64,000 nt of DNA from Burkholderiales bacterium. Its GTDB lineage: Bacteria; Pseudomonadota; Gammaproteobacteria; Burkholderiales; SG8-41. A program made the position numbers and the translations under genes. How positions within the stretch are numbered: position 1 is the first letter of the stretch; each line of letters starts with the position of its first letter. Where the stretch lies: positions 23,076-87,075 of the forward strand of contig JBBQAO010000001.1 in assembly GCA_038316355.1 (NCBI GenBank), written 5' to 3'. This document shows, in pieces, positions 12,687-58,907 of this stretch. The notes under the pieces were generated by a model that was not told the origin of the DNA, ran no database searches, and saw nothing but the letters and a program-made list of their open reading frames with translations.

Positions 12687-12762
<76 letters not shown>

Positions 12763-42389: not shown

Positions 42390-42532
42390 GCCAGACCGGC
42401 GCGTTGACACCGCCCCGATGATCTCGCAGAATCGCCGGCATCATCACGGGGGCGTTGGCAGACTCCCCGGCTCCAGACGCCCCGCGTCCAAGCGCTGCCT
42501 TCGTGTGAAACCGCTACCGCGAAGGAGTATTC

Positions 42533-49506: not shown

Positions 49507-51395
49507 TGTGATTTTGCTGCGGCAAGCCGCGCGCGAATTGATACAGCAATGCCCGCGGCATCCAGTCCGATGCTGGCCAGTTGCACGCCAGGATCGCCCT
49601 GCTCGATGAAACGGTCGGGAAGCCCAAGCTGCAACACCTGCACCGTACAGCCATGCTTCTGCAGCGCCTCCAGCACCGCGCTGCCGGCGCCGCCCATGAT
49701 CACGTTTTCTTCAATCGTTACCAGCAGCCTGTGAGTCGCCGCCAGCTCGCGCACCAGTTCTTCATCCAGCGGTTTGACGAAACGCATGTTGGCGACAGTG
49801 GCGTCGAATTCTTCGGCCGCCGCCAGCGCCGGCGCCACCATGGAACCAAAAGCGAGCATCGCGATGTCGCCCTTGCCCTGCCGCCGCACTTCGCCGCGCC
49901 CGACCGGCAGCGCAGTCATTTCCTTCTGCACCGCTACCCCGGGCCCGGTACCGCGCGGATAACGCACCGCTACCGGCGTGTTCATCTGGAAAGCCGTAAA
50001 CAACATCTGCCGGCATTCGTTTTCGTCGGACGGGGTCATCACCGTCATGTTGGGCAGGCAACGCAGGTATGACAGATCGAAACTACCGTTGTGCGTGGCA
50101 CCGTCAGCACCCACCAGACCGCCGCGGTCCAGCGCGAATATCACCGGCAGGTTCTGGATCTGCACGTCATGGATCAGCTGATCGTAACCGCGCTGCAGGA
50201 AGGTTGAATAAATCGCCACCACCGGCTTGTGGCCTTCGCAGGCGACACCTGCGGCAAAAGTCACCGCATGCTGTTCGGCAATGCCGACATCAAAATAGCG
50301 GTCCGGATATTGTGCGGCGTACTTCACCATGCCGGAGCCTTCGCGCATCGCCGGCGTGATCGCCACCAGGCGTTTGTCCCTGGCCGCCATGTCGCACAGC
50401 CAGTCGCCGAAGACCTGCGTGTAGGTCGGCTTGCCGCCGGATTTGCCACTGGCAATGCCGCTGGTGTGATCGAATTTCGATACGCCGTGATACAGAATCG
50501 GGTCGGCCTCTGCCAGCTTGTAGCCCTGGCCCTTGCGCGTCACCACGTGCAGGAACTGCGGCCCTTTCAGGCGTTTGATGTTGTGCAGCGTCGGAATCAG
50601 CGCATCGAGATCGTGGCCGTCGATGGGGCCGATGTAGTTGAAACCGAATTCCTCGAACATGGTGCCCGGCGTGACCATGCCCTTGACGTGTTCTTCGGCG
50701 CGGCGCGCGAGGTCGCCCAGCACCTTTTCGCCGAGGCCCTTGGCCGCGGCATAGAAACGACCCGACATCAGCTTGGCCAGGTATTTGTTCAGCGCACCCA
50801 CCGGCGGCGAAATCGACATGTCGTTGTCGTTGAGGATCACCAGCAGGTCGATGTCCATATCGCCGGCATTGTTCAGCGCTTCAAACGCCATGCCGGCACT
50901 CATCGCGCCGTCGCCGATGATCGCCACCGCGCGGCGCGGCTCACCCTTCAGCTTCGCCGCCACCGCCATGCCCAGCGCGGCGCTGATCGAGGTGCTCGAA
51001 TGCGCGGTGCCGAAGGCATCGTATTCGGATTCCGCGCGCTGCGGAAATCCCGAAATGCCCCGCCACATGCGCAGGCTTTTCATCGCGTCGCGGCGGCCGG
51101 TGAGTATCTTGTGGCCGTAGGTCTGGTGGCCGACATCCCACACCAATCGATCCTGCGGCGTGTCGTAGACGTAATGCAAAGCAATGGTTAATTCGACCGT
51201 GCCGAGATTCGACGACAGGTGGCCGCCGGTCTGGCTGACCGAATCCAGCAAATAGGCGCGCAGCTCCGCGGCCAGCGCCGGCAACTGGCTGCGCTCGAGC
51301 AACCGCAGATCGTGCGGGGTCGCCACCGATTTCAGCAATTCATACATCGGCCTGTCCTGCGCCCCCGTCCCGTCCATGGTCAATGTTCCGCTCAT
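49503..51395 (-). CDS. dxs: 1-deoxy-D-xylulose-5-phosphate synthase
   Basis: WDVGHQ, GDGA, IAEQHAV, DRGG, DGATH. Confidence 0.98.
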
Positions 51396-51407
51396 GGCTG
51401 CATTGTC

Positions 51408-52304
51408 TCAGAACTTGCGCAACACGATGAAATCCGCCAATTGCGCGAGTCGCGCCCCGCGGTCGCCAAAAGGCGCGATGGCGCGCAGCGCTTGCTCGCG
51501 TAATTCGCCAGCCAGGGTTTTTGCCTGTGCAATACCCATGGCACTGACATAGGTAGGTTTGCCCTGTTCGGCATCCTTGCCGGCGGTTTTACCCAGCGTT
51601 GCCGTCGGCGCCTCGGCATCCAGCACATCATCAACCACCTGGAACGCCAATCCGACGGCCTTGGCAAAGGTATCGATGCGCGAGAATTCCTGAGCATTGA
51701 GCCCGCTGCCGCAACGCGCGCCCAATACCGCCGCGGCGCGGATCAGCGCACCGGTTTTGTGGATATGCATGAATTCGAGTTCCGGCACGCTCAGTGATTT
51801 GCCGACTGCGGCAAGGTCGATGGCCTGACCGCCGGCCATGCCGCGCGAACCTGCGGCGGCCGCGAGCAACTTGACCATTTCGAGTTGATCCTTCGCATCG
51901 TCAGCAAGGCGATATTCACCCAGCAACTGGAATGACAGACTTTGCAATGCATCGCCGACCAGCAAAGCCGTCGCTTCGTCGAACTCGACATGGCAGGTCG
52001 GCTTGCCCCGCCGCAACACGTCATCATCCATGCACGGCAGGTCGTCGTGCACCAGTGAATAAGCGTGAATGATTTCAACGGCAGCACCGGCTACGGTCAC
52101 ACGCTCAGGATCAGCCTGCGCCAGTTCGCCCGCGGCGTAGGCCAACAGCGGCCGCACGCGTTTGCCGGCACCGAGCACGGCATAACGCATTGCCGCATGC
52201 AGGCGCTGCGGCGCAATCTCCGGCTGCGGCAACGCGCGCTGCAAAAACGCTTCGATGCGCTGTTGCCCGGCTGCGGCCCAGGCCTGGAAATCGGGGGGGG
52301 TCAC
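51408..52304 (-). CDS. ispA: farnesyl diphosphate synthase
   Basis: GKRVRP, HDDLPCMDDD..RRG, FQVVDD, GKTAGKD. Confidence 0.96.
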   Translation of the reverse strand: MTPPDFQAWAAAGQQRIEAFLQRALPQPEIAPQRLHAAMRYAVLGAGKRVRPLLAYAAGELAQADPERVTVAGAAVEIIHAYSLVHDDLPCMDDDVLRRGKPTCHVEFDEATALLVGDALQSLSFQLLGEYRLADDAKDQLEMVKLLAAAAGSRGMAGGQAIDLAAVGKSLSVPELEFMHIHKTGALIRAAAVLGARCGSGLNAQEFSRIDTFAKAVGLAFQVVDDVLDAEAPTATLGKTAGKDAEQGKPTYVSAMGIAQAKTLAGELREQALRAIAPFGDRGARLAQLADFIVLRKF

Positions 52305-52320
52305 TGGGGAAGACCGGCGA

Positions 52321-52557
52321 CTACTCGGCCGCGCCGAAATTCTTCAGCACGCCGCTTTCCAGGATTTTCACCTGCTGCTGCGCATCCTGCAGCTGGGTCT
52401 GGCACAGCTTGAGCAGTTCCGCGCCGCGTTTGTAGGCCGCGAGCGACTGCTCCAGCGGCATCTGGCCCTCTTCCATGGCTTCAACAATCTTTTCGAGTTC
52501 CGCGAGGGCAGTCTCGAAAGTGGGTGCCGCCGATGAGGATTTTGTGGTTTTGGGCAT
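52321..52557 (-). CDS. xseB: exodeoxyribonuclease VII small subunit
   Basis: FETALAELEKIV..ME.GQMPLEQSL..YKRG. Confidence 0.95.
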   Translation of the reverse strand: MPKTTKSSSAAPTFETALAELEKIVEAMEEGQMPLEQSLAAYKRGAELLKLCQTQLQDAQQQVKILESGVLKNFGAAE

Positions 52558-52658
52558 GAGGGCCGCGACCCCGCAGAAAGGACAGGAAATGTAGCCCAAT
52601 CAGCGGGTTGCGGTCAATGACAGGCCTGCGGCCGTCCGCATCGCGGCGATGCAGCGGA

Positions 52659-53876
52659 TTACCTGTGCAGGATGTCGGATACGGCGCGTGGAATCAGGCT
52701 CGACATGCCCAGCGGTTTCAGCGATGCATCGTCACTGTTAAGGCAGATATCACGCATCGCCAGCAAGGCCTGCGCCGCAACGGTCTCGCTCCAGAACCAT
52801 CGCTCGATGGCTTTGGGCGCGAGATTTCCAGGCTGTGCCGCTGCAGCTTCATAGTAATACGCCTTGATGTCATCACAGGCGCGTTTAACTGCCATGCCGG
52901 CGGACACGCTCGTACCGATGGCCGGCACCGGCCTCGCGTCGAGATACAGTGCGATATGGCGCGCAGCCTCATCCACCGTGCCGCCAAACACACCGACTGT
53001 GGTGCGGCCGCGTCTTTTTCGCGAAAGATCATACCAGGGCATCAGTTGCGCGATTTCCCCGAACATCGCCTGTGCCAGCGCACCTGCCGCCACTTTCGCC
53101 GCAGCGAAACTGACCGGACAGGCAAACCCGCTTTCCTCTTCATCAGCGGCAGGTGCATTCTCGGGAAAATCCTCCAATACCGGACCAGCGCCATGTTCAA
53201 ACAGCGACAGCAGATGCAGCAGCACCTTGCGCTGGAAGTCCGGTTCGTTCGGTGCCCCGAAGGGCCGCCCCAGCATGAACGGCACCCATAATGCCCGCGG
53301 CGGTCTGATCGCCACTGTCTGTTCGCGGATCAGGCTGATCTGTGCGGTGGGTATGCCTTCCCGCTCCAGGTAGTGGCCCAGTGCGCCCACGGCGCACGTG
53401 CAGTTGGGTCAGACGGGCGATAGCAAAACTGCGTCGACCTTGTCCTTTTTCAGCAAACCGGCAAGCTCACGGGCCTTGGACTCGAGCTTGCGGACCGGTG
53501 CAGCACCCATGAACGAGTAGTGAAAATCAGAAACCGAGCCGACGATGCCGCCCGCGCTCAGTTCGTGCAGCCGGTGCAGCGGAAAAGCGACATTGATGTC
53601 TTCCTGAAATCCGGTGCGGTCAAAATTGACCGAGAGGTGACTCATCAGCAATTCTCCGGGGGGAGTGTCGCCGGGGATGACGCGGTAATCCGTCGCCCCG
53701 CTGTCAAAGGGCCGGTCGCTGCGCACATGCACGCCGGCTGTGGTGACAATCGCCACCCGGCGTTCAGGCAGTGGCGGTCCGGATACGAAAGGCGTGGTGC
53801 CAAAGTCCGGCAATTCCGGGATCTTGTCGAGATGGTGGCCTTGTTCGGTTGCGGAAAAATCACTCAGTCGTGCCAT
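52659..53876 (-). CDS. GrdB/PrdB-like selenoprotein, 405 aa, Sec at codon 156 (UGA 53409-53411)
   Basis: ORFs 53409-53876 and 52659-53390 are in frame and join as DAVLLSPV-U-PNCTCAVGALGHYLEREGIPT. Grd/Prd-B motifs VAIVTTAG, D.NV.FPL, YSFMG, PPRAL.VPF.LG.P. SECIS-like hairpin follows the UGA. Confidence 0.88.
53377..53408 (-). promoter_or_regulatory. candidate bacterial SECIS of the GrdB-like gene
   Basis: mRNA UGA-CCCA-ACUGCAC-GUGCGCC-GUG-GGCGCAC-UGGG: 7-bp stem with G-first loop at +19. Confidence 0.7.
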
Positions 53877-53915
53877 GTCATGCCCCTCCCTGGTTGATCA
53901 TCATGCAGATCAGCA

Positions 53916-54530
53916 TCACCGCTGGTGTTTGCCAACGTTCCAGCCACTTTTAGCCAGATGTTTCTCGCCGACATGGATCGGCTCTTCTTCAAGTGGTGTT
54001 GCCATGGTGTCGTTCCAGCGGTTCATGAAACCAAACATGGCAATGACCGCCACGATTTCCACGATCTGCCCTTCGGTCCAGTGCTGCTTCAGTTCGGCAA
54101 ACAGTTCGTCAGTAACCGCGTTCGGCTGTGCCGCCCCTGCGATTGCAATCTCCAGCGCCGCGCGCTCAGCAGCCGAAAACAGCGGGTGTGTACGAAACTC
54201 CCAAACGGCTTCCAGTTTTTTTTCATCAATGCCCAGCCCGAGCGCCGCCCCGGCCGTGTGCGCCATTCAGTAATGGCAGCCGTGCGCCCGACTCGCCACA
54301 TGCGCCAACATGCGCTTGAACGCCACCGTTACTTCACTTTCCGGATCCCAGACTGCTGCAGCGAGCTGCGACAGTGCCTGCACCAGTTTCGGCTTGCGCT
54401 GCATGATCAGCACGCTGTTGGGCACGAAACCCAGCACCCTGACGTAGGTCTGGAACGCGCCCGCCAGCTCGGGCGTGGTTTCCTGCGGCAACGGTGTCAG
54501 TCGCGGATCCGGCTTTTCGCTTTTTTTCAT
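53916..54530 (-). CDS. AhpD/carboxymuconolactone decarboxylase-like selenoprotein, 204 aa, Sec at codon 88 (UGA 54267-54269)
   Basis: ORFs 54267-54530 and 53916-54266 abut in frame as ASRAHG-C-H-Y-U-MAH, aligning with GCRYCTAH of the Cys paralog at 55635-56231. Confidence 0.9.
54234..54256 (-). promoter_or_regulatory. candidate bacterial SECIS of the AhpD-like gene
   Basis: mRNA +11..+33 CGGCCGGGGC-GGC-GCUCGGGCUG can fold (one G.G mismatch) with a G-first loop at +21. Confidence 0.55.
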
Positions 54531-54581
54531 GGCTATGCTGCTCCTGTTTTGAACTATCTGGTTGAATTCGAAGAGATATTT

Positions 54582-55163
54582 TCAGGGGTCGAGACAGCGC
54601 AGCATGATTGCGGCGATATCCTTTAGAGCCGCGCGATCAGGATTCGCTTTGCCGACCAGCCGCAAACCCTGAATTCCGGACACCAGGAAACGGGCGAGCG
54701 ATTCCACGCCCGCATCGGCGGCAATTTCGCCGCGCGCCTGCGCGCGCGTCAGGGCGACGCAAAACGCCCCCTCGATGCGCGCCAGGCTCTGACGGACGCG
54801 GGCCACTGTGGCGCGGTCGCCGGCGAGTTCAGCGGCGCAATTGCCGATGAAACAGCCCGCTCGCCCCGGACCGGCGACAATGCGGTCGATCAACTCACCA
54901 ACAAACCCTGCAAGGGCCTCGCGTATCGGCAGCGGCTTTGCCAGCGCCACTGTGATGCGTGCAACCGCCTCTTGCTCGTAGCGGGCCAGTGAACAATGCA
55001 GCAACGCGCGTTTGCCGCCGAACGCGGCATAGAGGCTGGAGCGGCTCAATCCGGTCGCCGCGCAAAGATCGGCCAGCGAAGTCGCCTGATAGCCTTTGAC
55101 CCAGAAGGCCTGCATCGCGCGCGCGAGCGCGATGTCGGGCTCAAATTCTCGCGGTCGGGCCAT
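54582..55163 (-). CDS. TetR/AcrR family regulator (NemR/ComR-like)
   Basis: MARPREF, GY.ATS, GLSRSSLYAAFGGK, GCFIGN conserved Cys. Confidence 0.92.
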   Translation of the reverse strand: MARPREFEPDIALARAMQAFWVKGYQATSLADLCAATGLSRSSLYAAFGGKRALLHCSLARYEQEAVARITVALAKPLPIREALAGFVGELIDRIVAGPGRAGCFIGNCAAELAGDRATVARVRQSLARIEGAFCVALTRAQARGEIAADAGVESLARFLVSGIQGLRLVGKANPDRAALKDIAAIMLRCLDP

Positions 55164-55618
55164 CAGCGCACGGCTTCGGCCGCAAGTCCTTCAAGGACCT
55201 TCAGCAGATTCGGCACGACCGCACATTCACCCGCGGCATGGCGGGCTGCGAGAAACCGGGGATCGTTGTATCCCAGCCAGACCTGCCCTGTTGCGTCCTG
55301 CCACGCCAGCGCCTTTAGCGGCAGGTCGATCCCGGCCGTCTGCGCGCACTCCATTAACGGCGTGCCACCCTGCGGATTGCCGAACACCAGCAACTCGGTG
55401 GGGCGCAGGTTTTTGCCGATTTTCTGCGCACCGGCGGCATGATCGACCCGCAGGAAAATATTCAATCCCTTGCCCTTCGCCGCGGCCTCAAAACGATCCA
55501 GCGTGTCCTTGACGCCATGGGGACTCTTCACGGCGACCAGACCGTCAGCCGCCAGGCTTGTGACGGCAACAGCCGACAGCAGCAATGCAGCAAGCAATCG
55601 CAAAATGCGCATCATCAT
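55163..55618 (-). CDS. DUF302 family exported protein
   Basis: Signal peptide, VDHAAGA, FGNP.GGTPLM, IDLPLK; stop overlaps the TetR start. Confidence 0.88.
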   Translation of the reverse strand: MMMRILRLLAALLLSAVAVTSLAADGLVAVKSPHGVKDTLDRFEAAAKGKGLNIFLRVDHAAGAQKIGKNLRPTELLVFGNPQGGTPLMECAQTAGIDLPLKALAWQDATGQVWLGYNDPRFLAARHAAGECAVVPNLLKVLEGLAAEAVR

Positions 55619-55634
55619 CTTCTTCTCCAGTTGA

Positions 55635-56231
55635 TTATTTTGCATGCACCCCGGGGGTCCACCCGGATGCCGTGAGATGTTGGCGGGCAAACTCCAGAGG
55701 ATGCTCTTCCAACTGGGTCGCCAGAGTGTCGTTCCAGCGGTTCATCCAGCCAAACATCGAGATCACCGACACGATTTCGATAATGGCGTCTTCCGAGTAA
55801 TGTCTCTTCAACTCATCAAAATGCGCGTCCGTGACTGAAGCCGGAGCACCGCCGGCCGCGACGGCCAGGCTCAGGGCTGCGCGTTCAGCCGGCGTGAACA
55901 GCGGGCTGGACTGGAACTGCCACAAGGCATGCAGCTTCTCATCCGCAACCTTGCCGCGCTCGACAGTGCTCTCGGCATTGTGCGCCGTGCAATAGCGGCA
56001 GCCGGCAGCGTTGCTGACCACTTCGGCGATCATGAAACGCAACGCCGGCGGTATTTCGCCGGCATCCACCATCACCGCATCGCGCAGTTCGCGTACCAGC
56101 CTGAATATGCGCGGCTTGCGAGCCAGAGTCAGCCAGCTGTTGGGCACATAACCGCGTTGCTTGCTGGCTTTTTCGAAGTCAGCGGCGAGTTCCGCCAGAC
56201 GATCCGCGGGCGCGGATGAGATTCGGGACAT
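55635..56231 (-). CDS. AhpD/carboxymuconolactone decarboxylase family protein (Cys form)
   Basis: GYVPNS, GCRYCTAH, F..AERAAL, MNRWNDT; GAGG RBS. Confidence 0.9.
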   Translation of the reverse strand: MSRISSAPADRLAELAADFEKASKQRGYVPNSWLTLARKPRIFRLVRELRDAVMVDAGEIPPALRFMIAEVVSNAAGCRYCTAHNAESTVERGKVADEKLHALWQFQSSPLFTPAERAALSLAVAAGGAPASVTDAHFDELKRHYSEDAIIEIVSVISMFGWMNRWNDTLATQLEEHPLEFARQHLTASGWTPGVHAK

Positions 56232-56350
56232 GGTAATTTCCTCTTGAATGGCGCATCTGCTGTATGGGACCGGGGAATCATCGTTTTCCGGTGACGGGAA
56301 TTGCTGCCGCGCTTAATTGCCGCCGCGCTTGTTTGAACTATTGCCGGATT

Positions 56351-56378
56351 ATTATAGAATGATCATTCCGGAATGCAA
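56351..56378 (-). promoter_or_regulatory. sigma70 promoter with TetR-type palindrome in spacer
   Basis: Minus strand TTGCAT-N16-TATAAT; perfect palindrome GAATGATCATTC at 56357-56368. Confidence 0.7.
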
Positions 56379-56525
56379 GCAGCGAGAGCATCCCGCGTCC
56401 ATGCTGCTGCGCCATGACATCAGCCGAATCATGGTAAAAACAGAGTGCAGTTGTAAGGATTACGGCGCTGCGCCGACCCACGCATCAGGATACGTCCGGA
56501 ATTACACGTTTTCAGGAGTCCATTG

Positions 56526-57491
56526 ATGCACGCCACCCTGCCCCTGATGCAAATCAGCGATTTCCCGGACATCCGCCGCCGCGCGACGGAAACACTGCAG
56601 GTCAATCTCGGCTACAAGTGCAACCAGAGCTGCCTGCATTGCCATGTCAACGCCGGACCCACCCGCACCGAGCTGATGGCGCTGGACACGATCAATGAGG
56701 TCATTGCCTGTCTCCAGTCCACCGCCATCAAAACTCTGGATGTCACCGGCGGCGCGCCGGAATTGAACCCGCATTTCCGCACACTGGTCGAGGCCGCGCG
56801 CAGCCTCGACGTACGGGTGATCGACCGCTGCAACCTGACCATCCTGTTCGAGCCCGGCCATGAGGACCTGGCGCAGTTCCTCGCCGGGCAGCAGGTTGAA
56901 ATCACTGCGTCCCTGCCCTGTTATCTGGAAGACAATGTCGACCGCCAGCGCGGCAAGGGTGTGTTCGGCACCAGCATCCGCGCGTTGCAACTGCTGAACG
57001 GCCTGGGTTACGGCCAGCCCGGCTCCGCGCTCAAGCTGAATCTGGTCTACAACCCGCAGGGCCCCGTGCTGCCCCCGGCACAGCAATCGCTGCAGCGTGA
57101 TTACCAGCAGCGCCTCGCCGACGGTTACGGCATCGTATTCAACGAACTGTTTGTCATCACCAATATGCCGATCCAGCGTTTCGGCAGCACGCTGGTGTCC
57201 AAAGGCCAGTTTGAGCCGTACATGAACCTGCTGAAAAACGCCCACCAGCCAGCCAACCTCGAAACCGTGATGTGCCGCTCGCTGCTGTCGGTGGACTGGC
57301 AGGGTTATGTCTACGACTGTGACTTCAACCAGATGCTCGACCTGCCGCTCGCCTGGAAAAACCGGCCGCGTCCGCACCTGCGTGAACTGATCGGCGCGGA
57401 TCTCGAACGCAATCCCATCGTGGTCAAGGACCACTGCTACGGCTGCACCGCCGGGCAGGGCTCCAGTTGCGGCGGCGCGCTGGGCAACTGA
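56526..57491 (+). CDS. arsS: radical SAM protein ArsS family (radical SAM + Cys-rich DUF3641-like C-terminus)
   Basis: LQVNLGYKCNQSCLHCH (CX3CX2C), TGGAPE, ASLPCY, YDCDFNQ, HCYGCTAGQGSSCGG. Confidence 0.9.
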   Translation: MHATLPLMQISDFPDIRRRATETLQVNLGYKCNQSCLHCHVNAGPTRTELMALDTINEVIACLQSTAIKTLDVTGGAPELNPHFRTLVEAARSLDVRVIDRCNLTILFEPGHEDLAQFLAGQQVEITASLPCYLEDNVDRQRGKGVFGTSIRALQLLNGLGYGQPGSALKLNLVYNPQGPVLPPAQQSLQRDYQQRLADGYGIVFNELFVITNMPIQRFGSTLVSKGQFEPYMNLLKNAHQPANLETVMCRSLLSVDWQGYVYDCDFNQMLDLPLAWKNRPRPHLRELIGADLERNPIVVKDHCYGCTAGQGSSCGGALGN

Positions 57492-57521
57492 CCGACCGGC
57501 ATCACACAGGATCGACTGCAC

Positions 57522-58907
57522 ATGATTGAACCTGCATTCGCGATTTATTTCTGGGGCTTCCTGCTGCTCTACGGCGGCGTAATGTATGCCATCTCGCCGC
57601 ACTCACGCAGTGACGCCAGTTTTTTCGGCGGCAGCGACGACGCGGGACGGCCCGCCACCGAATGGGCGCTGATGTGCAGCATTTTCATAAGTTGGATCTT
57701 TGCGAAATCAGTGACCAATGCCGCCAACCTCGGCGCAGCCTGGGGTGTCGTTGGCGGCCTTGCATACGCCACCTACTGGCTGTCGATTCCGCTGGCCGGG
57801 TTTGTCATTTACTGGCTGCGCACGCGCCACGGCGCCACCGGCCTGGTGCCGTTCCTGATCGGCCGCTACGGCCGGCTCGCCGCACTGGCCTTCACTGCAG
57901 CGATCCTGATTCGCCTCTATAACGAAGTGTGGAGCAACACTGCGGTGGTCGGCGCCTATTACGGCAAGGCCGGTGAATGGACTTTCATTGCCTCCGCGCT
58001 GCTGTTCACTGCAGTGACGCTGGTCTACAGCCTGAAGGGTGGTTTACGCAGCTCCATCGTCACTGACGTGATCCAGGCCGTGCTGTTCGTGATCGTGCTC
58101 GGCATCGTGCTGTTTCTGGTGCTGCCCAAGCACGGCGTCGGCACATTGCTTACCGTCGGCGATTTCCGCTTGAATGCCGGTGTCGATCTGCTGCTGGTGG
58201 CGCTGCTGCAGGTGGTGTCCTACCCCTTCCATGATCCGGTGCTGACTGATCGCGGCTTCATCACCAAAGAAAAAACCATGCTGCGCGCGTTCATCGTGGC
58301 TGGCGCGCTGGGATTCATCTGCATTTTCGCATTCAGTCTGATTGGCGTGCATGCCAAATTCGAAGGCCTGCCCACCGGCGACAACATGCCGGGCGCGGTG
58401 GCACTGGCCTTTGGCACCCTGCCCTATCTGTTGATGACGGTGGTGATGATCATGGCGGCCGGCTCCACGCTGGACTCAACCTTCTCATCGGTCGCCAAAT
58501 CCATCGGCCGCGAACTGCCGATGCTTGCCGGCCGCACACCGGGACCGCGCGCGATGGTCATTGGCATGTGGACCATGCTCGCCTTCGCCATCCTCGGTAA
58601 TGTGCCGATGATCGCCGGCACCGACATCCTGAAAGCCACCACCGTCAGCGGTACGATGGTGATGGGCCTGGCGCCCATATTCCTGCTGGCACCGCTGGTG
58701 AAATATTCGCCGGCGAGCTTCCATTTCGCATTCTGGCCGGGCATTGTGCTCGGCGTATTGCTCGCTGCCAGCCTGATCCCGCAGTCCTGGGCCATCGGCG
58801 ACGGCAAATATGCGCTGCTGCTCGGCGTCAATCTCTACGGCCTGTTGATCTGCATTGCCGGCTTCCTGTTGCCGCTCGCCTGGCAGCGGCTGCGCCCGGC
58901 GCACTGA
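57522..58907 (+). CDS. sodium:solute symporter-like membrane transporter
   Basis: About 13 hydrophobic segments, ISWIFAKS, YSLKGGLRSSIVTD..Q, STLDS. Confidence 0.8.
   Translation: MIEPAFAIYFWGFLLLYGGVMYAISPHSRSDASFFGGSDDAGRPATEWALMCSIFISWIFAKSVTNAANLGAAWGVVGGLAYATYWLSIPLAGFVIYWLRTRHGATGLVPFLIGRYGRLAALAFTAAILIRLYNEVWSNTAVVGAYYGKAGEWTFIASALLFTAVTLVYSLKGGLRSSIVTDVIQAVLFVIVLGIVLFLVLPKHGVGTLLTVGDFRLNAGVDLLLVALLQVVSYPFHDPVLTDRGFITKEKTMLRAFIVAGALGFICIFAFSLIGVHAKFEGLPTGDNMPGAVALAFGTLPYLLMTVVMIMAAGSTLDSTFSSVAKSIGRELPMLAGRTPGPRAMVIGMWTMLAFAILGNVPMIAGTDILKATTVSGTMVMGLAPIFLLAPLVKYSPASFHFAFWPGIVLGVLLAASLIPQSWAIGDGKYALLLGVNLYGLLICIAGFLLPLAWQRLRPAH

Follow-up and report, generated by a model that had tools for sequence, protein, structure and literature searches.

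An AhpD-like CxxU protein with a probable selenocysteine codon, encoded beside a PrdB-like selenoprotein gene in a Burkholderiales genome

The window, meaning the whole 64,000-nucleotide stretch of Burkholderiales DNA analysed here, carries on its minus strand a run of genes in the order Cys-type paralog, DUF302 protein, TetR-family regulator, AhpD-like gene, PrdB-like gene, xseB, ispA and dxs. Both the AhpD-like and the PrdB-like frames contain an internal TGA. The features on which the argument depends are as follows.

55635..56231, minus strand: Cys paralog (GCRYC) of the CMD family, 198 aa, from the open reading frame list, Pfam and BLASTP
55163..55618, minus strand: DUF302 protein encoded between the paralog and the TetR regulator, its N-terminus resembling a signal peptide
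54582..55163, minus strand: TetR-family regulator directly upstream of the AhpD-like gene, with a 51-nt gap between them
54541..54545, minus strand: AGGAG, a Shine-Dalgarno-like motif 10 nt ahead of the ATG at 54530, from reading the sequence
53916..54530, minus strand: AhpD-like/CMD-fold selenoprotein gene; 204 codons followed by the TGA stop codon at 53916..53918
54276..54278, minus strand: TGC codon of Cys85, likely the resolving Cys of CxxU, invariant and aligned to the first Cys of Bmp8
54267..54269, minus strand: in-frame UGA, codon 88 and the U of CxxU, read here as selenocysteine (Sec), with the TGA conserved in relatives
54234..54256, minus strand: SECIS-type hairpin, from folding and comparison with relatives (core 54254..54248 with 54242..54236, loop 54247..54243)
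52659..53876, minus strand: PrdB/GrdB-like selenoprotein gene of 405 codons, starting 39 nt past the stop of the AhpD-like gene
53409..53411, minus strand: in-frame UGA of the PrdB-like gene in the context SPV-U-PNCTC, a UxxC motif, from reading the frame
53381..53397, minus strand: hairpin of the PrdB-like gene, 7 bp, 11 nt downstream of its UGA, from folding

Translated with table 11, the AhpD-like frame falls into two open reading frames of 87 aa (54267..54530) and 116 aa (53916..54266). The original prediction had instead read this region as one frame interrupted at GCHY-UGA-MAH, and that is what it contains: a 204-codon minus-strand frame with just one internal TGA, at codon 88, in the context G-C-H-Y-TGA-M-A-H. 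The Cys paralog in the same window provides the closest comparison. BLASTP joined residues 10-204 of the Sec protein to residues 3-198 of the paralog in a single alignment with 88 of 196 positions identical and one gap (E = 6e-63). This alignment spans the TGA, which lies opposite the second Cys of the paralog's GCRYC. The expectation that both halves would align continuously with the neighbouring paralog, and that the paralog would have Cys where the Sec gene has UGA, is thus borne out. The motifs quoted as shared between the two proteins were likewise all found (GFVPNS/GYVPNS, AERAAL and MNRWNDTMATPLEEEP/MNRWNDTLATQLEEHP). Judged from this alignment, the paralog at 55635..56231 is a usable internal control for Sec recoding.

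Relatives of the AhpD-like protein were sought by six-frame search in 61 related genomes. All 44 rows with at least 56% identity carried exactly one TGA, one weaker row at 33% identity was likewise TGA-bearing, and the 12 paralog-type rows (45-48% identity) were without TGA. In the 30 loci that were fetched, the codon aligned to position 88 was TGA every time, within the motif GC[HSNR]YUMAH. A broader scan, using one genome per species, yielded 246 stretches that encode a relative; in the best 80 of these 246 loci, the codon-88 position is TGA in 43, TGC in 36 and TGT in 1. The UGA is therefore not private to this strain; a private UGA, with TGC/TGT in close relatives, was what the original prediction had named as the sign of a nonsense mutation. 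Named records among the best 80 of 246 loci are mostly Betaproteobacteria or Burkholderiales metagenome-assembled genomes (MAGs), and Cys forms in the same set also occur in Alphaproteobacteria (Pseudolabrys, Xanthobacteraceae, Hyphomicrobiales) and in Polaromonas. The genome studied here also has a second TGA-bearing AhpD-like copy on another contig (G000:C158:1161-1742, plus strand), with 64% identity to the first.

Cys85 and position 88 are invariant in a 47-row protein alignment. In a maximum-likelihood tree of 47 rows (L065 left out, L100 trimmed before its terminal stop, midpoint root on the long paralog branch), the 22 sampled Sec rows form one clade with support of 97/89, nested among Cys forms. 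This topology fits a single Cys-to-Sec change, as far as the sampled sequences indicate. Given this single clade, the many TGAs counted above cannot be treated as independent events, and the conservation of the hairpin described below could be explained in part by the shared ancestry of that clade.

The hairpin begins 12 nt past the UGA. Its 7-bp core stem sets GCCGGGG (54254..54248) against CUCGGGC (54242..54236) and encloses a 5-nt loop, CGGCG, at +20 to +24 after the UGA; the original prediction had placed the loop of a SECIS-like hairpin at +21, within this interval. The consensus core stem of the relatives is GCCGGGG with CUCCGGC (7 pairs). In the window copy the fourth core pair is a G.G mismatch, so 6 of 7 pairs form, and two extra basal pairs are present (54256/54234 and 54255/54235). 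A G occupies the second loop position in all 30 sequences. As in E. coli fdhF-type SECIS elements, the stem-loop lies within coding sequence and starts about 11-12 nt past the UGA, with apical-loop G residues about 21-22 nt after it. Unlike those elements, the stem here is short (7-9 bp), the loop has 5 nt and there is no obvious bulged U. The loop positions of the fdhF SECIS are G23/U24.

Compared with shuffled sequence, the stability of the hairpin is not exceptional (z = -1.51 for 76 nt, z = -0.66 for 51 nt). Single-sequence folding of the AhpD-like and PrdB-like hairpins is non-significant and offers no usable support in GC-rich DNA. The hairpin is held to be more than chance because of the comparison with relatives, not because of the window sequence alone. 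Among the best 80 of 246 loci, the complete 7-pair core is present in 29 of 43 TGA genes, and the remaining 14 are one pair short, compared with 0 of 37 Cys genes with 7 of 7 pairs and 2 of 37 with 6 of 7; the peptide encoded over the hairpin is nearly identical between the TGA and Cys groups of the same 80 loci. Covariation was assessed on 30 sequences (27 distinct rows) at 9 pairs. Paired cells amounted to 86.8%, against 34-64% when the 3' partner columns were slid by 1-3 positions, and one pair was changed from C-G to U-A in 5 of the 27 distinct sequences and another from G-U to A-U in a single sequence. Of the 9 pairs tested, 4 are invariant, and pairs changed on both sides did no better than shuffles (381 of 500). 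The covariation in this alignment is thus real but modest.

Synonymous codon usage in the same region is also restricted. Mean synonymous codon entropy is 0.44 over codons 89-100 and 0.97 elsewhere (Mann-Whitney p = 7e-4), the lowest-entropy run of 12 codons in the whole gene starts at codon 88, and the codon for Leu97 is CTC in 30 of 30 sequences. As sequence evidence for a functional element, the UGA-linked hairpin test and this synonymous suppression carry more weight than the covariation. A permissive Rfam scan of 52500..54700 gave no match; this says nothing either way, because there is no usable bacterial SECIS model. At gathering thresholds, Rfam matched two features across the whole window, a chrB-b motif (42447..42498, plus strand, 54.2 bits) and a tRNA (12690..12762, minus strand).

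Bacterial Sec recoding requires selA, selB, tRNA-Sec and selD, and the genome (171 contigs, 96.7% complete) contains all four. SelB (425.9 bits), selA (570.4), tRNA-Sec (75.9) and selD (416.4) all score above curated cut-offs. Three of the four, selA, selB and tRNA-Sec, form a cluster on the contig that carries the window, some 29-35 kb past the window's end (G000:C150:116330-122161). The selD gene (G000:C4:509-1438, minus strand) contains one in-frame TGA itself, and its product is therefore probably a Sec-containing SelD.

On these grounds, we consider it very probable that 53916..54530 (minus strand) is one intact gene and a genuine Sec-decoding member of the AhpD-like family. Although a stop codon appears to interrupt it, the gene most likely encodes a complete, small redox enzyme of 204 residues. 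The family itself is not new. An AhpD-like CxxU selenoprotein family was described from the Sargasso Sea with 27 sequences assigned to COG2128 (Zhang, Fomenko & Gladyshev 2005; PMC1088965), and the same 2005 study reported a CMD-domain CxxU selenoprotein family (PMC1088965). A 2008 study of the GOS data gives counts of 299 for 'AhpD-like 1' (COG2128), 70 for 'AhpD-like 2' (pfam02627) and 235 for PrdB selenoproteins (PMC2398784), and a 2026 review includes 'AhpD-like protein, TIGR01926, CxxU' in its list (PMC13188914). Like these published AhpD-like selenoproteins (COG2128/TIGR01926), the protein described here has a CMD/AhpD fold and a CxxU motif in which Sec substitutes for the second Cys; its gene has a SECIS hairpin directly 3' of the UGA with a G in the apical loop, and there are many Cys homologues. 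The match was drawn from motif, fold and family models. The published sets are mostly marine reads, whereas the clade found here comes from Betaproteobacteria/Burkholderiales MAGs. The gene is an unannotated member of a selenoprotein family that has been known for two decades, since 2005.

The substrate chemistry of the protein is much less certain than its Sec decoding. The Pfam CMD model (PF02627) matches at 41.1 bits, above its cut-off of 23. Among NCBIfam models, TIGR01926 ('peroxidase-related enzyme') fits best. The protein, scored with Cys in place of Sec, reaches 69.8 bits with it and the Cys paralog 76.0, both short of the cut-off of 81.8; by this model, the protein would therefore be a borderline member of the subfamily. 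An AF2 model built on the 47-row alignment (pLDDT 93.9, pTM 0.89) is all-helical and forms one compact domain, with residue 88 in the opening turn of helix 86-98. The best Foldseek matches to this model are two entries for Bmp8 (6ohj and 6ohi; TM 0.84/0.91, rmsd 2.0 Å, 32-34% identity), followed by AhpD-type 'peroxidase-related' proteins (TM 0.71-0.75). A phmmer search against the PDB agrees, with Bmp8 at E = 6e-30 over residues 9-184 and the next entry at 8e-08. The phmmer alignment puts the CxxC of Bmp8 opposite C85 and U88, and a Bmp8 entry for the C82A mutant shows that the first Cys of Bmp8 corresponds to C85. By predicted fold and by sequence, the protein is a member of the CMD/AhpD fold whose nearest solved structure is the thiol-dependent debrominase Bmp8.

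Among AhpD-like proteins, peroxide or a protein disulfide would be the default reading of the substrate for the family. The protein resembles AhpD proper in its score above the PF02627 cut-off and in structural matches to 6k40, 7xw1 and 6e8l (TM 0.60-0.74), but its sequence similarity to AhpD proper is much weaker (6k40, E = 3e-4), and no ahpC-type partner gene was seen among the open reading frames of 51000..58000. In Mycobacterium AhpD, the attacking Cys is the second Cys of the motif. An alternative hypothesis is that the same gene, recoded in the same way, encodes a Bmp8-type reductive dehalogenase or carbon-heteroatom reductase in which Sec attacks the halogen. Bmp8 stands well ahead of every other solved structure (E = 6e-30, with 8e-08 for the next entry, and TM 0.84/0.91 against about 0.73 for AhpD-type proteins); its CxxC motif aligns with the CxxU here, and its chemistry is dithiol-based and reductive. 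Debromination by Bmp8 is reductive and oxidizes its cysteines to a disulfide (PMC5577590). However, identity to Bmp8 is just 32-34%, Bmp8 has Cys and not Sec, and Bmp8 belongs to a bromopyrrole biosynthesis cluster, of which no genes lie near the AhpD-like selenoprotein gene. Neither halogenase nor bmp-type genes were found beside the gene in the window or in the 16 other loci surveyed, and the family is common in Betaproteobacteria MAGs from freshwater, soil and groundwater, habitats in which a substrate of this kind is not evident. We regard a dehalogenase role as unlikely. The title of the primary Bmp8 paper reportedly compares the enzyme with thyroid deiodinase. If Sec did cleave a carbon-halogen bond, bacteria would have converged on the chemistry used by deiodinase selenoenzymes.

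The PrdB-like neighbour raises a related question of function. Its TGA is kept in all 30 search rows covering the site and in 27 of 27 fetched homologues. The gene scores 100.8 bits with TIGR04483, far under the cut-off of 300, and about 180 residues in the C-terminal half of the protein are without a family match. A second PrdB-like gene with a TGA occurs in the same genome (G000:C69:19109-20248, plus strand, 44% identity) and is not adjacent to the second AhpD-like copy. Among the best 80 of 246 loci, 15 of the 43 Sec loci have a PrdB-like gene next after the AhpD-like gene, as do none of the 37 Cys loci, and the TetR gene is syntenic in 16 of the 43 Sec loci; the whole gene arrangement is syntenic in the nearest clade. 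PrdA/GrdE (PF09338) had no match in the 96.7% complete genome, and because the control search matched in none of 14 genomes, the absence of PrdA/GrdE is not established. Further neighbours were surveyed in 16 Sec loci without a PrdB-like gene (80 of 94 open reading frames scanned, the 14 overlapping the gene itself left out). These neighbours vary, with no consistent partner gene across the 16 loci; they include TctC receptors, PNPOx, pirin and isocitrate/isopropylmalate dehydrogenase, and in 2 of the 16 a pyridine-nucleotide disulfide reductase.

The AhpD-like CxxU protein and the PrdB-like UxxC protein could conceivably form a dedicated two-selenoprotein reductase module, or the CxxU protein could carry out a Bmp8-like cleavage of a carbon-halogen or carbon-heteroatom bond by Sec, although we think such specialized roles unlikely. 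In a module of this kind, the small CxxU protein would act as selenoprotein A (GrdA, also CxxU) does for GrdB in glycine reductase. The operon section of the 2026 review names Prx-like and AhpD-like genes, not an AhpD-like and PrdB pair (PMC13188914). Nor was the pairing found in passages on these families in three selenoproteome papers (PMC1088965, PMC2398784, PMC13188914); supplementary tables of such papers may list it, or this very ortholog group.

Other genes near the operon can be noted here in their own right. Divergent from it on the plus strand lies arsS (56523..57491), a member of the arsenosugar-biosynthesis radical SAM '(seleno)protein' family in its Cys form, with a TIGR04167 score of 460.3 bits against a cut-off of 300. 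It is syntenic in 10 of 43 Sec loci among the best 80 of 246. It is followed by a weak match to sodium/solute-symporter-like membrane proteins (57522..58907, plus strand). The sole NCBIfam match of the DUF302 protein is to the C-terminal part of the 'CrcB' model (130 bits against a cut-off of 312), which suggests that this model includes a fused DUF302 domain.

Two explanations remain that deny selenocysteine at codon 88. In the first, the TGA is a true stop, leaving either a dead gene or two polypeptides of 87 and 116 aa with translation restarting at the adjacent AUG. An ATG does follow the TGA immediately, the two halves appear as separate proteins in public gene calls on many contigs, and the folding energy of the hairpin as a single sequence is non-significant. 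However, the TGA occupies one codon across homologues of 56-93% identity with both halves conserved. Cys forms likewise conserve Met89 (YCMAH in the majority of Cys loci among the best 80 of 246), and the codon after the TGA is ACG or GTG in two Sec genes, L074 and L076; in L074 it is ACG, which is not a start codon. No purine-rich Shine-Dalgarno motif was seen ahead of the internal AUG, and the hairpin and synonymous suppression are specific to TGA-bearing genes. The original prediction had itself allowed a split-gene reading from this AUG and objected that it would cut the active-site helix. The AF2 model sustains the objection, since residue 88 falls within helix 86-98 and a split would break this helix in what is predicted to be a single-domain fold. 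We consider a true stop highly improbable. Equally improbable is decoding of the UGA as Cys or Trp by a near-cognate or suppressor tRNA, with the hairpin merely slowing termination: homologues among the best 80 of 246 loci have Cys at the site, so Cys insertion would also yield a working enzyme, but the genome has kept a complete selA-selB-tRNA-Sec cluster and selD, TGA still serves as a stop codon (e.g., at the end of the AhpD-like gene itself), the hairpin is consistent with a SelB-type element in its position and its G-containing loop, and the AhpD-like family is already catalogued as a selenoprotein family.

With Sec at codon 88 as the preferred reading, a mechanism can be proposed by analogy with known systems. 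Following the known bacterial pathway, SelB carrying Sec-tRNA(Sec) would bind the hairpin 12 nt past the UGA and deliver Sec at UGA88, and termination would therefore be bypassed. By comparison with the family, Sec88 would then stand in for the second CxxC cysteine of AhpD, at the N-terminal turn of the helix, and would act as the attacking nucleophile on a substrate that is oxidized or electrophilic, for instance a peroxide, a disulfide or, conceivably, a carbon-halogen bond. Cys85 could resolve the intermediate to give a selenenylsulfide, which in turn would be reduced back by a cellular thiol system, as expected for the family. The gene is probably part of a TetR-controlled stress or detoxification operon together with the orphan PrdB-like selenoprotein.

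Public annotation does not reflect such a gene. The 87-aa half is named 'hypothetical protein' and the 116-aa half 'alkylhydroperoxidase family enzyme' or 'carboxymuconolactone decarboxylase family protein'; in JGI annotation the C-terminal half bears the first of these two 116-aa names, and the paralog is an 'uncharacterized peroxidase-related enzyme'. The PrdB-like gene is likewise split, and its 155-aa N-terminal piece (53412..53876, minus strand) appears as a separate predicted protein on many contigs. A survey from 2006 gives just one selenoprotein family for Betaproteobacteria (PMC1794560). Since public gene calls split these genes, the selenoproteomes of uncultured Betaproteobacteria are under-counted. 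The single family in the 2006 survey is said to be formate dehydrogenase.

The main value of the finding therefore lies in annotation, and the known picture of Sec recoding is unchanged. The split public gene calls, Bmp8 as the nearest solved structure and the recurring orphan PrdB-like neighbour may be less well known. Together, the link to Bmp8, the recurring PrdB-like pairing and the single Sec clade provide modest leads on the function of a very abundant environmental selenoprotein family.
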